Source: Nitrosopumilaceae archaeon (GTDB lineage Archaea; Thermoproteota; Nitrososphaeria; Nitrososphaerales; Nitrosopumilaceae). Taken from it: a stretch of DNA of 64,000 nucleotides. Each line of letters starts with the position of its first letter. The stretch's first letter is position 1. The notes under the pieces were generated by a model that worked only from the letters and a program-made list of their open reading frames with translations, did not search any database and was not told the DNA's origin. A program made the translations under genes and the position numbers. Shown here one piece after another: positions 20,252 to 62,929 of the stretch. Location of the stretch: the NCBI GenBank assembly GCA_965214835.1, contig CBDCCK010000002.1:2272001-2336000 (forward strand), read 5' to 3'.

Positions 20252-21846
20252 CCTGCCGAGGCTGCCACAAACGCCTCAAATGCCCCCTCGGGATATCCCG
20301 GACGGCTGTTGAACTCGGGATGGTACTGGACCCCAAGGTAGAACCTGTGATCTGGAATCTCAAGTATCTCCATTCTCTTGCCCCCGTCGCTCTCGCCGGT
20401 AAACTGCAGCCCCTTGTCTGAGAACTCCTCGATGAAATCCCGGTTGATCTCGTACCTGTGCCGGTGCCGCTTTGATATGACCTCAGAGTCGTAGATTTTC
20501 CTTGCAAGCGTGTTGTCCCTGATCTGAATGTCGTTTGCACCCAGCCTCAGTGAGCCCCCCATCTCTGATACGCCCCTTTGCTCCGGCAGCAGGTCTACCA
20601 CCGGATGGCTTGTCTGGGGGTCGATCTCAGTGGAGTTGGCATCGGCGTATCTGCATACGCTTCTTCCAAAGGCCACCGCGGCCAGCTGGAATCCAAAGCA
20701 GATTCCAAGATACGGCGTGTTGCTCTCCCTTGCAAAGTCTGCGGCCCGTATGATTCCCTCCGATCCACGGGTTCCAAACCCTCCGGGCACCAGGATTCCG
20801 TGGTGGCCGCTTAGCTTTGAGAGGTCTCCTAGCTCGTCTGAGTCAATCCAGTCGATTGACACTGATCTTCCCACCTTTGCACCCGCGTGCCTGAGGGCGT
20901 GGTTTACGCTGACATAGCTGTCTGCCAGCGTAACGTACTTTCCGACCATTGCGATGCTTATCTCCCCGTTGGAGTGGTTCGTCATGTCGTGTACAATCCT
21001 TGCCCATCGCTCCCACCCATCGGCGGTGCCTACCAGGCCCGCCTTGCCGAACTTTTTGAAGATTGCGTCTATGACTCCCTGCTCGTACAGGATCTGGGGC
21101 ACCATCAGGATGGACTTTACGTCATGGCACGATAGGACGTCCCCTGTACCTACGTTGGTAAACAGTGCGATTTTTTGCTTGGTCTTGTCCTGCAGTGGCT
21201 CGGCGCACCTGACTGCCAGCAGATCCGGCTGGATGCCGATTCTCCTCAGTTCCTGAACGCTGTGCTGCGTGGGCTTTGTCTTTTGCTCCCCCACCACGTC
21301 TAGCGACGGCGCCAGTGTGACGTGAACGAAAATCACGTTTTCTGCCCCCTCCTCGACCCTGATCTGCCTTAATGCCTCAAGAAACGGCAGGCTCTCGATA
21401 TCGCCCACGGTTCCGCCGCACTCTACGACTAGGACATCCAGTCCCTCGTTGCATGCGACCGTCCTGACGCGCCGCTTAATCTCATCAGTTACGTGTGGGA
21501 TGATCTGAACGCAGGCTCCAAGGTACCTTCCCTTTCTTTCTGCCTCTATCACGCTTGAGTATACCTGTGCTGTGGTTATGTTGTGGGACTTTGGAATGTC
21601 CTGGTTTAGGAACCTCTCATAGTTGCCTATATCCATGTCGCACTCCCCCCCGTCGTCGGTTACAAAGACCTCTCCGTGTGCAACGGGATTCATGGTTCCC
21701 GCATCATAGTTCAGGTACGGATCAATCTTGATGCATGACACCCTTTGGTTTGATAACTGCAGCAGCTTTGCAATCGAGGAGGCCGTGACGCCCTTTCCGA
21801 GGCCCGACATGACGCCGCCTGTTACGAAGATGAACTTTGTCTGCAC
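20248..21846 (-). CDS. pyrG: CTP synthase
   Basis: Motifs TGGVMSGLGKG, GGTVGDIES, GICFG, RHRHRYE and QYHPE. Confidence 0.98.
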   Translation of the reverse strand: MQTKFIFVTGGVMSGLGKGVTASSIAKLLQLSNQRVSCIKIDPYLNYDAGTMNPVAHGEVFVTDDGGECDMDIGNYERFLNQDIPKSHNITTAQVYSSVIEAERKGRYLGACVQIIPHVTDEIKRRVRTVACNEGLDVLVVECGGTVGDIESLPFLEALRQIRVEEGAENVIFVHVTLAPSLDVVGEQKTKPTQHSVQELRRIGIQPDLLAVRCAEPLQDKTKQKIALFTNVGTGDVLSCHDVKSILMVPQILYEQGVIDAIFKKFGKAGLVGTADGWERWARIVHDMTNHSNGEISIAMVGKYVTLADSYVSVNHALRHAGAKVGRSVSIDWIDSDELGDLSKLSGHHGILVPGGFGTRGSEGIIRAADFARESNTPYLGICFGFQLAAVAFGRSVCRYADANSTEIDPQTSHPVVDLLPEQRGVSEMGGSLRLGANDIQIRDNTLARKIYDSEVISKRHRHRYEINRDFIEEFSDKGLQFTGESDGGKRMEILEIPDHRFYLGVQYHPEFNSRPGYPEGAFEAFVAASAG

Positions 21847-57746: not shown

Positions 57747-59114
57747 CAGTAGTTGAAAATGTACCCCATAAATCCGTCTAGCCGGGATCATGCCGCCGTC
57801 GCCCCACCCCGATCCTGTCGGCATCCGGCGCACGGAGGCAGCACGAATACAGGACCACGGCATACATCAGAGTCAGCAGCGCCATGACGCGGGTCTTTGG
57901 GTCTCCCGAGTCCCTCATTGTCAGCCATATGTTGCATACTGCAAGCGACATGTAAAACAAAAGCACACGCAGGACAGGATTCCTGCTGACGGTCCGCGGC
58001 CTGACGCTCTTGGCACAGCGGTATCCGGTCTCTATGCCCCACCTGTTCCGGTACTCTCTTGTCACATGGCAGAACAGCTGCCGATAGCTGCAGCAGCGCA
58101 CCGTGGTCGCAAACACGTGGTATCTGTCAAAGACGTTCTTTGCCTTGGACCTTGGGATCTTCTTGATGACCAGCGTGAACGTGAACTCTTTGCCGTCTGA
58201 CGACCTCATGGTATACCTTGATACTGCCTTTCTCTTGCCGCGGGCGCGCTGCACTATGGCCCTCTTTATCCCCGGCGTCTTGACTGCGGGCATGATGAAT
58301 GCAAACCCGGGTTCGGATATGGCATCCATTACATCGACCGAAAAGAACCCCCTGTCAAGCAGGATGATGCTGCGCCTTGACCCGAGCCTGGGCGTAATGC
58401 CCAGATCGGCGCATTTTTTGAGCATATTACGCACCAGATCGGCCTGTTTGTCGCCCTCGGTCACCATGCGGCAGGCCGTATGCACGTCGGCGCCGGCCTT
58501 GGATGTCAGCTTGCATGTCATGTACTGCTCATAGTTGATGGTGCCCCTGTCGCGCTTTGACTTTACCAGGTGCTTTATGTCGGTTTTCTTGTCGTATCTG
58601 GGCAGCTTGGTCGCGTCTATGGCAAGGACAGGCGCCTTGTGGCTCCTTTGGAGGGAGCAAAGCTGCCTGCCCACCGCCTCGGCGGCCGTGTAATGCAGCA
58701 TTGCATCGCACCTTTTCTCCATCGTGGACAGTCTTGCGTGCCCCAGCTTTGCAAGAAGCCAGGCCGAGCTGGGCACCGCGGCCCCGGCGCCTTCTGATGC
58801 AAGAAGTGCAAGCTTTTGGGCGGTATAGTGCGCACATGCGGAACGCTCCGACATGGATGCAATCAGGCGGGAGGCGTCTTCCAAGCCCCACATGGCGTTG
58901 TGTCTTGAGGAGAACTTGATTTTCAGCATGCCTACTGCGGTAACCAAGAATTTAAATCCGGCCTCACCGTACCTTGTGTGGTGTTTCTGTTGGGTTTGGT
59001 TCATTATCAAGGTAGACAGGAACACCGCTGTTTATAGCTCGATTGGTGAAAAAATCATGTCAACTTGTTCAAAACATTCAGACACTTAAAAAGGGGGTAC
59101 ATTTTCAACTACTG
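57747..59114 (-). mobile_element. ISH3-family insertion sequence B (1368 bp)
   Basis: Perfect 21-bp TIRs CAGTAGTTGAAAATGTACCCC and a 5-bp TSD (CTTGT). Confidence 0.93.
57778..59025 (-). CDS. ISH3/IS4-like DDE transposase (415 aa)
   Basis: Motifs LAIDAT, LDRGFF and YRNRWGIETGYR. Confidence 0.92.
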   Translation of the reverse strand: MFLSTLIMNQTQQKHHTRYGEAGFKFLVTAVGMLKIKFSSRHNAMWGLEDASRLIASMSERSACAHYTAQKLALLASEGAGAAVPSSAWLLAKLGHARLSTMEKRCDAMLHYTAAEAVGRQLCSLQRSHKAPVLAIDATKLPRYDKKTDIKHLVKSKRDRGTINYEQYMTCKLTSKAGADVHTACRMVTEGDKQADLVRNMLKKCADLGITPRLGSRRSIILLDRGFFSVDVMDAISEPGFAFIMPAVKTPGIKRAIVQRARGKRKAVSRYTMRSSDGKEFTFTLVIKKIPRSKAKNVFDRYHVFATTVRCCSYRQLFCHVTREYRNRWGIETGYRCAKSVRPRTVSRNPVLRVLLFYMSLAVCNIWLTMRDSGDPKTRVMALLTLMYAVVLYSCCLRAPDADRIGVGRRRHDPG

Positions 59115-59707: not shown

Positions 59708-60862
59708 CTAATTCAAACGTGTAAGATTCTTTGGTAGCATACCCTTATTCATATCTGACACAGCATGAATGGATGAAAATTGCATGCTGATCGCATCTAT
59801 TTTGGCCATGTTACATAGCAACTTCTTCATGCCCTCAGTTAATGACTCCATGCGTTGATCAAAGAAGTCACTACCGATATCCATTATTATCGAACCTCGA
59901 ACCTTTTCATAATCACCCAGACCAATATCATGTTTGTCAATTCGATCTATTGCCTCTTTGGCAAAATACTGGATGAAAAATGGATATTGATCGGCATCGT
60001 CTATAATCAAAGAAATCAGATCGTCTGAAAATGTCCAGTATGTTTTTTCCAGTGGTTTGGTTATGGCCTCCTTTGATGCCGGTTTTGTCAGATTGGAGAT
60101 TTGTAGGAACTTGAACATTCTTTCAGAATAGGATCGTGCATTTTTGACGTTGATTGACATAGGCAAGCCAGACAGAACAAGGGAGTACCTAAAGCCCTTG
60201 GCCTGCACCTGATTTATTGCCCAATAAAGGCCGAAAGCGTATACCATCCGTTTTGTTTCATGTTCTGGATTGTATGAAATTCGTCTAACAGAAACACTGC
60301 GCCTTCATAGTTTTCCCGTACAAACTTTGATTTTTTGATCAAATAGTCTGCAATCTGATCCTCCACCGGTGCATTGGAATCCGGGTTGCAAGAGGGCTCG
60401 TAGGATATCACTCCTAGAATCCCTATGTTTTTTGACTTTAGATAGCTGACAGCTGATTGGATCTTTCCCTTGGTTCTTTCCGTCTTTGAAAATTCCTAGA
60501 TTGCAGTGTCAGGATCATGCCTTATTGTCTTGAAAAATTCTGTCGGATCAGAGTGCTGTTCGCTGTACTGCAGACGCAGTATGGGCAAAAATCCCTTATC
60601 GGTACAAATCTCTGCAAACTTATTCAGCAGTACAGTCTTTCCCATACCCCTGATGCCCTGCATCAGCAGGTTTCCAACCTTCCCTGCTTTGACGTCTTTG
60701 GATTCCAGCTGGCCGCGGTGGCCTTTGGAACTGCATCAGCAGGTTTCCAACCTTCCCTGCTTTGACGTCACGCAGTATGTGAGAGAACTTGTCAATCTCA
60801 TGGTCACGCCCTGCCAGATATGGCGGCATGAGTCCAGATCCTAGATTAAACGGATTGTGCAT
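59708..60862 (-). pseudogene. Archaeal ATPase (AAA/STAND-like) pseudogene
   Basis: NPF...PPYLAGRD, Walker A GIRGMGKT (restored when the 73-bp insertion is removed), Walker B FLLDEFH and YPFFIQ. Also an internal TAG and a frameshift. Confidence 0.85.
60658..60769. repeat. Repeat-spacer-repeat unit: two identical 39-bp direct repeats around a 34-bp pyrG-derived insert
   Basis: CTGCATCAGCAGGTTTCCAACCTTCCCTGCTTTGACGTC at 60658-60696 and 60731-60769. Bases 60696-60730 are the exact reverse complement of 20664-20698. Confidence 0.9.
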
Positions 60863-61098
60863 GCTTTCTGTTGTGCTCTGCCTAGATAAGCTTGTGAATC
60901 CCTGGTTTGTGTGGGGTGGCGTCCCCTGCCTGCCATGTATGAAAATCATAAATCCGCGCCTAGCCGGTCGGGGACAGGCGACACCGCACCTTGCTTTCCA
61001 AGCAATGCCTAAATACCCCCACAGTAGCGATCAGATATATCGGGAGACCGGTCTCCCCTTGAGGACACCCCCCTCAGTTCCCGGTCTCTTGATTATCC

Positions 61099-61932
61099 TT
61101 ATACTATCCTTTCAAACTCGGCTAGCTTGTCTTTGATTTGATCCTTTGTCTTGCCTGATATTTTCTTGGGATCAAACAACCCCTCCCTTGTGTTATTTTT
61201 GACAAACTCCAAATCAAACGTGCAGAGGCATCCCTCCTCTCCGGTTACCAGTCTTGCATCGTCAATTAGGACAGAGCTTGTCTGGTACGTCTCCACAAGC
61301 AGACTGTCCAGCTCGTCAAACAGATCCTGCTTCTTTTTTGCCATCCTCTGAAAATCCTCGTCGGCCGAGTCATGGATTTCGGAATAAATTTTCTCCCGCA
61401 GGCTGTCATTTTCAAACAAGACCTCAAATAACCTCTCGTGATCCAGATCCGCATATCCTGACTCCCTTAGCCGGTTCAACACGAACTGATCGCTTTGATC
61501 CGCCAGTGCGGCCTCTCTTTTCTTTGTCACATCCATTATTTCTGACAGTTCTTTTTGTGCCTCCACGACCCTGTGATCCGTCCTATAGTACAGCAAGACA
61601 TGGAATTGAATCGAGACGTGTCCTGAAAGCAAATAGTTGCCGACCTTGGTCTCAAACTTTGCAAAAATCCTCCTTATATCCTCATTGTTTGTGGTTGTAA
61701 GATCCTGCACCGACCACCCCTCAAGCTTTTGGATGATTCCCTTAAAGTAGCCCTGGACCAGGCCGGGATCAAACGTCATCTGCTCCGTTACCGTGGCGTC
61801 CCCCAGCATGACCTTTAGAGGAACCGATCTCGTGTGCACCTTCATCCTCGCAACGAACCCTTCCTGAATCCTTTCATTCAGATCGCCTAGCTCGGACATG
61901 AAGGCATCGGAGGATCTGCTGCCTATCCGCAT
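61099..61932 (-). CDS. Conserved hypothetical protein
   Basis: Clean 277-aa ORF with host-like codon use. Confidence 0.8.
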   Translation of the reverse strand: MRIGSRSSDAFMSELGDLNERIQEGFVARMKVHTRSVPLKVMLGDATVTEQMTFDPGLVQGYFKGIIQKLEGWSVQDLTTTNNEDIRRIFAKFETKVGNYLLSGHVSIQFHVLLYYRTDHRVVEAQKELSEIMDVTKKREAALADQSDQFVLNRLRESGYADLDHERLFEVLFENDSLREKIYSEIHDSADEDFQRMAKKKQDLFDELDSLLVETYQTSSVLIDDARLVTGEEGCLCTFDLEFVKNNTREGLFDPKKISGKTKDQIKDKLAEFERIV

Positions 61933-62125: not shown

Positions 62126-62929
62126 GTGATTGTCATGGGTGATTCTGAAGAGCGTCCAATTCCAACCGGAAGAGACGCCCCCGACGTGGTAGACATGATG
62201 CTGGGCAAAAAGGACGGCACGGTAGTTGATCACGATACCATGATACAGGAAACCCAGACCAGGGTGTGGGGGGCACTGAAAAAGGGATACGAGTATGCCG
62301 GCCCCACGGATAACTCCGAGGAGTTTCTCCGGAAGAACGTATTCAAAAGAATCCAGATGGTTTCCCTGTATGTGGATCTGGTTGGCTCCACCCAGATGAC
62401 ACTGGAGCTGCCAAGCGAAAAAATCGCGATAATCATCAGCTCGTTTGCCCAGGAGATGGCATCTGTCGTGCACCAGCACGAGGGCTATGTCCTAAAGTTT
62501 GTGGGAGATGCCGTGATCGGGTATTTTGTTGCCGAGAAGAACTCGCTGCGCGCCGCAGACAATGCCGTAAACTGTGCAAAATCCATGATTACCGTAATAG
62601 AGAAGGGAATCAACCCGATCCTGAACCAGTATGACTATCCTGATCTGCTGGTAAAGATCGGCATAGACTATGGACAAAACATCATTGTTCGGTATGGCGC
62701 AGATGCCGAGCAGTCCCATGTGGATGTCATGGGGCCTGCAATGAATATCGCAGCCAAGATCCAAGGCATGGCAAAGCCAAACCAAATCCTGATCGGGGAT
62801 GACGTCTTTGCAAGGCTGCATCCTGAGACCCAGAAGGAGTTCAGGCTGATTGAATGGAAGAACAACGAATGGCGGTATCGCTCAAGGGTTACTGGCCAAA
62901 TTTACCCCGTCTACGAACACCTGCCTTAG
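62126..62929 (+). CDS. Class III adenylate/guanylate cyclase
   Basis: Motifs YVDLVGST, KFVGDA, KIGID.G and DVMGPAMNIAAK. Confidence 0.92.
   Translation: MIVMGDSEERPIPTGRDAPDVVDMMLGKKDGTVVDHDTMIQETQTRVWGALKKGYEYAGPTDNSEEFLRKNVFKRIQMVSLYVDLVGSTQMTLELPSEKIAIIISSFAQEMASVVHQHEGYVLKFVGDAVIGYFVAEKNSLRAADNAVNCAKSMITVIEKGINPILNQYDYPDLLVKIGIDYGQNIIVRYGADAEQSHVDVMGPAMNIAAKIQGMAKPNQILIGDDVFARLHPETQKEFRLIEWKNNEWRYRSRVTGQIYPVYEHLP

Follow-up and report, generated by a model that had tools for sequence, protein, structure and literature searches.

We describe a repeat-insert-repeat unit within a 64,000-nt stretch of chromosome (hereafter the window; C2:2272001-2336000) of a Nitrosopumilaceae archaeon that carries an archaeal AmoA gene and whose genome, labelled G000, comprises 3,222,539 bases in two contigs, C1 and C2. 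The unit interrupts an ATPase gene, and in it two identical 39-mers flank 34 bases that are copied from pyrG, the CTP synthase gene of the same chromosome. It is very probably the scar of an off-target (non-canonical) spacer integration by the organism's own CRISPR adaptation enzymes, a type I-G Cas4/Cas1 fusion and Cas2. The preliminary description of this DNA had proposed a naturally fixed off-target spacer acquisition by Cas1-Cas2, and the proposal is now supported by the Cas genes of the genome, by a protospacer-adjacent motif (PAM) at the source, by 42 further units, by an empty allele in a relative and by contigs spanning the junctions. The unit and its source consist of the following features, given in window coordinates.

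60731-60769, minus strand: duplicated-target copy of 39 nt, leader-proximal in the PAM-defined sense, beginning with G on the minus strand (100% identical copies; orientation based on the PAM)
60697-60730, minus strand: the inserted spacer, 34 nt long (35 if the shared base 60696 is included), its PAM-proximal end adjoining the leader-proximal copy in the order of a canonical array
60658-60696, minus strand: second duplicated-target copy of 39 nt, 100% identical to the other copy
20664-20698, plus strand: protospacer inside pyrG, the source of the insert by exact sequence match
20661-20663, plus strand: TTC, a TTN-type PAM directly 5' of the protospacer (from the sequence, the class-level PAM described below, and the TTN of type I-G in the available part of PMC6547450)
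20248-21846, minus strand: pyrG, intact CTP synthase gene of 532 aa (TIGR00337, E 4e-219)

From the start of one 39-mer to the start of the other is 73 bases, and the 34-base interval that separates the two is exactly 20664-20697 in reverse complement. The base at 60696 (20698 in the source; a shared C/G pair) fits both the repeat and the source, so that the unit may be partitioned as 39/34 or as 38/35. Across both contigs the 39-mer occurs twice, each time within the unit, which starts at C2:2332658 in chromosome coordinates (window 60658), and the 34-mer occurs only in the unit and in pyrG. The perfect 39-bp duplication and the 34/35-bp reverse-complement insert from the host's own pyrG, 40 kb away, had been noted in the preliminary description and are confirmed by this comparison; the internal inverted repeat AGCAGG-N12-CCTGCT and the sequence GTTTCCAA, which it had placed in the duplicated target, are both found there. 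Since the protospacer is still present in pyrG, the event was of the copy-and-paste kind. The insert matches the genome's own pyrG at 100% and the pyrG of G002, a genome of the same genus (76% complete), at 94% over 35 bases, so that the spacer came from this lineage. When the unit is read in the PAM-defined sense (the minus strand of the window), the upstream copy meets the insert with its 3' end at the PAM-proximal side, as in a canonical array.

The genome encodes a suitable enzyme. Its single Cas1-family match is a Cas4g/Cas1g fusion (NF049935, E 4.5e-227) of 566 aa without stops, followed by a Cas2 of 96 aa, so that the pair is cognate and apparently intact. The two genes begin a complete type I-G locus 150 kb from the unit, in which they are followed by the main array (C2:2482178-2492954) and then by Cas3g, Cas8g2, Cas7g and Csb2, all of them open. 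This array has 148 identical repeats of 36 nt, which end in AGC, and 147 spacers, most often of 37 nt (54 spacers) or 36 nt (45) and less often of 38 (18), 39 (16), 35 (7) or 40 nt (4), with one each of 26, 41 and 51 nt. The 3' end of the repeat resembles the usual crRNA (CRISPR RNA) handle, which places the leader on the Cas2 side. As the most common spacer has 37 nt and the repeat 36 nt, the modal period of the array is 73, the very period of the unit. The preliminary description had suggested a comparison with the cas1, cas2 and cas4 genes and array lengths of the genome, and it is these genes, the 36-nt repeats and the period of 73 that now tie the unit to a type I-G system: the target duplication of 38-39 nt has the length of a repeat, 2-3 nt above the mode of its class, and the insert of 34-35 nt that of a spacer, borderline low. 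In the available part of PMC6547450, type I-G Cas4/1 selects TTN PAMs and 36-bp spacers, and the repeat of Geobacter sulfurreducens likewise ends in AGC.

Some features of the arrays may be recorded here. The leader-proximal spacer of the main array (C2:2482214-2482239) is just 26 nt long, the sole such short spacer among the 147. Spacer 41 matches a 13-kb plasmid-like contig at C1:6365-6401 in 36 of 37 bases, with TT just upstream; the mismatch is the first spacer base. On the opposite strand, C2:135841-136353 holds a second, small array, with about 8 repeats that vary in sequence and with one spacer present twice.

The unit is not alone. When the whole genome was scanned for perfect direct repeats that stand isolated, measure 25 nt or more and have periods of 30-160, 111 matches resulted, 48 of which fall at periods 71-76 (2, 22, 9, 5, 8 and 2, respectively), over a background of 0-2 at most other periods, 3 at period 69 and 4 at period 79. 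The count at period 79 stems from four copies of one unit inside a multi-copy element, and the further peaks, 13 at period 84 and 16 at period 156, stem from repeated gene families; the period-84 sites (for example 272770, 379241, 751149 and 2301412, the last being window 29412) belong to a multi-copy element or gene family with an internal 84-bp repeat. The chance origin of the unit is excluded by this period scan. Repeats of 30-45 nt at periods 68-80 number 48, of which 44 are unique, and 43 of these, with periods of 69-77, form the class considered here. The duplication measures 36 nt in 15 units, 37 in 11 and 35, 38 and 39 in three each (31-34 and 44 in the rest); the insert measures 36 nt in 15, 37 in six, 38 in five and 35 in four (28-43 in the rest). 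The modal geometry is accordingly 36/36 for repeat and insert (n=43). Two members are doubtful, since 1668572 has the look of a tandem duplication and 1973493 (44/28) falls within a repeated gene family; the firm count is therefore about 41. A mismatch-tolerant scan adds about nine units whose copies differ at 1-4 positions, which suggests that these are older events. The preliminary description had asked whether similar duplications exist elsewhere in the genome, and 42 do; examples on C2 follow.

204691, 558201, 717492, 1033730, 1625426, 1849910, 1921439: isolated stray units of the class, whose modal geometry is 36/36
2336271 (271 bases past the end of the window), 2360350, 2366624, 2445029, 2950434, 3127496, 3161274: stray units, continued

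A chromosomal source could be mapped for 10 of the 43 units. TTC or TTG stands directly 5' of the source in 7 of these 10, and in 8 of 10 when one 1-nt ambiguous base is assigned to the spacer, compared with 6.7% of random sites in either orientation (p 1.6e-8). Several apparent sources had been dropped before this count: e8, e9, e26 and e36 (four copies of one unit in a multi-copy element, whose 'sources' are each other), e16 and e17 (two copies and mutual 'sources'), e13 (with a paralogous copy of the unit as its 'source'), e0 (87% over 38 nt), e11 (a 28-nt partial match) and e18 (in a repeated gene family). Chromosome-derived inserts thus occur in 10/43 stray units, and none of the 147 array spacers matches the chromosome, a difference that is expected if only array spacers make crRNA and cause autoimmunity. 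For the inserts without a source, two 27-mers from two units (2 of about 30 such units tried) gave 0 exact matches in viral_contigs. Three of the self-derived stray spacers come from one 4.2-kb stretch (C2:902180-906409; L078 6180-10409) that adjoins orc1/cdc6 (900127-901338) and the gene of the PolD small subunit; the cumulative GC skew has its global maximum at 900498, so that this is probably the replication origin.

The sites that received the inserts show little in common. In the best register, the duplicated sites match the CRISPR repeat at a mean of 13.3 of 36 positions, compared with 13.1 for random 36-mers (p 0.29), and likeness to the repeat was consequently rejected as a property of the class, although the target of the pyrG insert itself is identical at 17/36, a value reached by 2.3% of random 36-mers. 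The preliminary description had pointed to the inverted repeat in the target and to the often palindromic targets of Cas1-Cas2. We do not retain the palindrome as a determinant of the site, as the longest perfect stem averages 4.2 in the 43 sites and 4.0 in 3000 random 36-mers (p 0.06); a 6-bp stem like that of the pyrG-insert unit is present in about 6% of random 36-mers. The class thus lacks the repeat-like sequence or structure by which a nuclease could recognise a functional array. Apart from G/C at the junction, no site signal was found: at 68/86 strand ends the repeat has G or C as its terminal base (p 4e-7), and at 70/86 it has one of them at position -2. In the PAM-defined orientation 8/9 duplicated sites begin with G, and a 5' G is present on at least one strand in 28/43 units (46% expected, p 0.008). 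The choice of site is accordingly nearly blind to sequence, and a ruler sets the spacing.

The units show signs of selection. Their period is divisible by 3 in 27/43 cases, compared with 62/147 array periods (binomial p 0.005, Fisher p 0.0135). The empty sites lie inside open frames of at least 150 aa in 25/43 cases, compared with 76% of 1500 random 36-mers, and 17 of those 25 frames stay open (at least 150 aa) across the unit, usually with a gain of 23-25 residues. Eight in-frame units in open frames of at least 200 residues were scanned against Pfam: six lie in a GT2 glycosyltransferase, a PMT/laminin-G protein, a sulfotransferase, an HtrA-like protease, an IS3-type transposase and an IS630-like transposase, and the other two proteins gave no family match in that scan.

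In their distribution, 11/43 units lie within 150 kb of the array (4.0 expected), ten upstream and one downstream, and 6/43, at C2:2332658-2394950, are no more than 40 kb from the minimum of the GC skew at 2,358,514 (1.1 expected, p 7e-4), the pyrG-insert unit being the first of them; both tests are post hoc. One and the same local cluster surrounds the GC-skew minimum and lies within 150 kb upstream of the array; it may reflect array proximity, a terminus effect or a tolerant region, which the two tests do not separate. Proximity to the array is for this reason not adopted as its cause.

Both junctions, which the preliminary description had wanted seen in sequencing data, are carried by contigs of two studies. 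The data consist of Logan de Bruijn contigs assembled from 31-letter words, not of raw reads; a 59-nt contig covers 60667-60725 in runs X1 (possibly the source sample), X3 and X4 (another study), and each of these runs also has a 60-nt contig that covers 60701-60760. The left and right junction contigs have depths of 21.9 and 13.3 in X1, 23 and 22.6 in X3, and 5 and 5 in X4, where the flanks have about 29, 27-30 and 5-6, respectively, and the repeat contig has about twice the flank depth. Run X7 yields one 151-nt piece, outside the unit. The empty allele, likewise sought in relatives at the suggestion of that description, is found in G002, where the homologous locus on contig C39, about 77% identical, has a single copy of the target and no insert.

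Three further relatives were sampled by stretch. In 396 kb around the I-G locus of G004, which is of the same genus and has nearly the same repeat, no clean unit was found; a candidate at 1838588 was set aside as a tandem duplication that has diverged. Four isolated units, with periods of 70-71, occur in 386 kb of G070, from another genus with a modal array period of 71, and 366 kb of G059, again from another genus, with array modes of 73 and 72, hold three clean units with periods of 73, 70 and 73. At one G070 site, 5.7 kb from cas4/1 (G070:C1:2989807-2989990; L068), there are two spacers (40/30, then 30/39), which suggests that a stray site may have been used twice.

The gene into which the pyrG fragment was inserted is a single feature.

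59708-60949, minus strand: AAA_16 / archaeal-ATPase-type (STAND-like) gene, now a pseudogene that carries the 73-bp unit, a stop codon in frame at 60496-60498 and, near 60220, a frameshift

Its type was assigned through a paralogue. Homology follows frame -2 upstream of the unit and frame -3 downstream of it, the change expected from an insertion of 73 bp; it is then cut by the in-frame stop and changes frame again near 60220. Virtual removal of 73 bases rejoins the Walker A codons and the N-terminal part in one open frame, which bears out the statement in the preliminary description that the Walker A frame is restored in this way. Its suggestion of a Cas1-driven gene knockout is not supported: the gene has at least three lesions, the unit among them, and its loss cannot be ascribed to the insertion; the ATPase copy in G002 and the ATPase paralogue are likewise broken. 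The pseudogene is flanked by genes for a DDE transposase (57778-59025), a conserved protein of 277 aa (61099-61932) and a protein with an adenylate/guanylate cyclase domain (62126-62929); the 277-aa gene has no family match and also adjoins the G002 copy.

A sequence of steps can be proposed for the event. The integration complex would capture a 34-35-bp fragment of pyrG beside the TTC PAM and would make its first attack at the G of window 60769, on the minus strand. The PAM-side 3' end would then be joined to the other strand 38-39 bp away, at a distance set by the molecular ruler that normally spans the 36-bp repeat, and gap filling or repair would duplicate the 39 bp between the attack sites. 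We infer the order of the two strand transfers from type I-G biochemistry. In the available part of PMC10504553, spacer-side integration by type I-G enzymes in vitro is less exact than leader-side integration, which fits a duplication of 38-39 bp rather than 36 bp. The product would have no crRNA function: most likely the unit is not processed and is simply a frameshifting insertion of 73 bp.

Some observations weigh against an off-target integration by Cas4/Cas1, or at least temper it. The duplication in this unit has 38-39 bp, not 36, and only 6/43 units of the class have 38 or 39. The insert of 34-35 nt is at or just under the minimum of the array spacers, among which 35 nt occurs in 7/147 and 34 nt in 0/147. 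Two of the ten mapped sources have no clean in-register TTN, one having a TT shifted by a base and one having none. In X1 the right-junction contig has about half the depth of the flank (13.3 vs 28.6), and because the 39-nt repeat is longer than the 31-letter words, the share of cells with an empty allele is not resolvable by the contigs. Lastly, the dependence of the event on Cas1 is inferred.

Could the unit instead be a nascent array, that is, a working one-spacer CRISPR locus with a crRNA that targets or regulates pyrG? The preliminary description had entertained this, and the repeat-spacer-repeat geometry, the PAM-proximal end placed by the upstream copy as in a canonical array, the 17/36 identity of the target to the repeat, and the G070 site that has gained a second spacer would suit it. 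Yet across the class the sites are no closer to the repeat than random 36-mers are (13.3 vs 13.1), and stems are not enriched (p 0.06), a 6-bp stem being present in about 6% of random 36-mers. A crRNA directed at the cell's own TTC-flanked pyrG would moreover provoke autoimmunity, whereas the genome has an intact pyrG together with open effector genes, and self-derived spacers are a feature of the stray units (10/43), not of the array (0/147). As the duplicated sites are unlike the CRISPR repeat, we read the unit as a non-functional scar and hold a nascent array to be very unlikely. The other enzyme to be considered is a different integrase, for instance a Cas1 akin to a casposase or an unknown transposase whose cuts are widely staggered, and it has in its favour that Cas1-family integrases besides the CRISPR one also make target duplications. 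A casposon or Cas1-family transposon brings its own integrase gene, terminal inverted repeats and a short target duplication of about 14-15 bp, whereas here the 34-nt insert contains no gene, the inserts of the class are unique, spacer-sized and devoid of terminal inverted repeats or genes, the duplication has the length of the CRISPR repeat, and the genome has one Cas1-family match. The preliminary description had ranked a casposase as the less likely source; we regard any such integrase as exceedingly improbable.

Two explanations would dispense with an integrase altogether. In the first, template switching by a polymerase or repair-templated insertion, 34 nt of pyrG would have been copied at a stalled fork or a break and 39 nt of the ATPase gene then re-copied; the template 40 kb away on the same chromosome, the inverted orientation and the one-base microhomology (C) at the left junction are compatible with this. 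That single base is all the microhomology there is, the right junction having 0 nt, and copying of this kind does not predict TTC or TTG by 8/10 sources, a 36-nt peak of duplication lengths or array-like insert lengths. Nor would it account for unit periods in relatives that lie at or near the modes of their own arrays (70-71 in G070, mode 71; 70-73 in G059, modes 72-73), and we judge it highly improbable. For an assembly or library chimera one might point to the assembly itself, which is nearly closed in two contigs, but both junctions recur in run contigs of three samples from two studies, and artefacts would not endow a class of units with a PAM, an in-frame bias of periods and a depletion from long open frames; the probability of a chimera is close to negligible. 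Integration by the type I-G Cas4/Cas1 and Cas2 is the reading retained in what follows.

Comparison with known systems delimits what is new. Nivala, Shipman and Church are said to have shown in 2018 that off-target integration creates 'neo-CRISPR' loci in E. coli type I-E when Cas1-Cas2 is overproduced in the laboratory; according to later papers that cite it, the evidence from two other species is circumstantial only, and sites near IHF-like motifs are said to be favoured. The units described here share with those loci the spacer-sized fragment at a non-CRISPR site, the repeat-length duplication and the repeat-spacer-repeat geometry. They differ from them in being natural, fixed, archaeal and of type I-G, with about 42 in one chromosome, and in that their sites bear no resemblance to the repeat, with many of them in frame within genes.

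The type I-G Cas4/Cas1 enzymes of Geobacter sulfurreducens (PMC6547450) and Methanosarcina barkeri (PMC10504553), as portrayed in the available passages, resemble ours in the NF049935 fusion, the TTN PAM, the spacers of ~36 bp and the repeat ending in AGC, while the integration described in them is at the leader-repeat junction. Those passages mention some incorrect or nonspecific-position integration in a plasmid assay and contain no chromosomal off-target sites, and the word 'off-target' occurs 0 times in PMC10504553. Pyrococcus furiosus Cas1-Cas2 (available part of PMC6698737) offers an archaeal case with non-CRISPR DNA and repeat-length spacing, although it was observed in vitro on plasmids and its sites shared features of the repeat, where ours have only the G/C signal at the junction. 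The one-spacer mini-arrays that viruses and proviruses carry, to judge from part of a review (PMC8616872), are alike in having a single spacer between two repeats away from cas genes; their repeats are identical or similar to host CRISPR repeats, whereas the duplicated 'repeats' here are host gene sequence, as the empty allele in G002 demonstrates. A search of the literature (main texts) found no report of dozens of natural fixed off-target integrations, none of a type I-G example and none of coding insertions that keep the frame and arose in this way. Off-target integration is thus known from the laboratory, and its scale in a natural genome appears to be new.

What has so far been a laboratory phenomenon with thin natural evidence is represented here by about 42 fixed events, with candidates in two related genera. 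Such a number of natural events makes testable the cost of CRISPR adaptation to the host and the question of whether new arrays can start in this manner. The events expose the choice of the integrase without guidance by a leader, namely a length given by a ruler, G/C at the junctions and no likeness to the repeat. They also make visible naive acquisition without the filter of autoimmunity, with chromosomal sources in 10/43 units against 0/147 array spacers, and an unexpected by-product, in-frame protein insertions of 23-25 residues written by an immune enzyme. A broader view, which we put forward tentatively and with confidence somewhat short of even, is that the CRISPR integrase in this lineage acts as a standing genome-wide mutagen: it would have made more than 40 spacer-sized insertions with ruler-set 36-bp duplications, many of which survive in frame and each of which could be reversed by recombination between the perfect copies. 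If this is so, the units would record naive adaptation free of interference, their sources clustering at the probable origin and having TTN PAMs, and would at the same time be a source of gene knockouts and of variation in protein length. That two other genera with this I-G system share the signature would then mark it as a trait of the system, not an accident.

The surroundings of the integrase gene may be added. In this genome 320 bp, in which a tRNA-Asn gene lies, separate the final open frame of a ribosomal-protein operon from the start of cas4/1 (C2:2478837-2480012; L002 14837-16012). Read-through from the ribosomal operon as a cause of high Cas4/1 expression is weakened by what lies in between, namely the tRNA-Asn gene, a T-run and an AT-rich stretch. 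In G004 the same ribosomal-protein operon and the cas4/1 genes are 19 kb apart.

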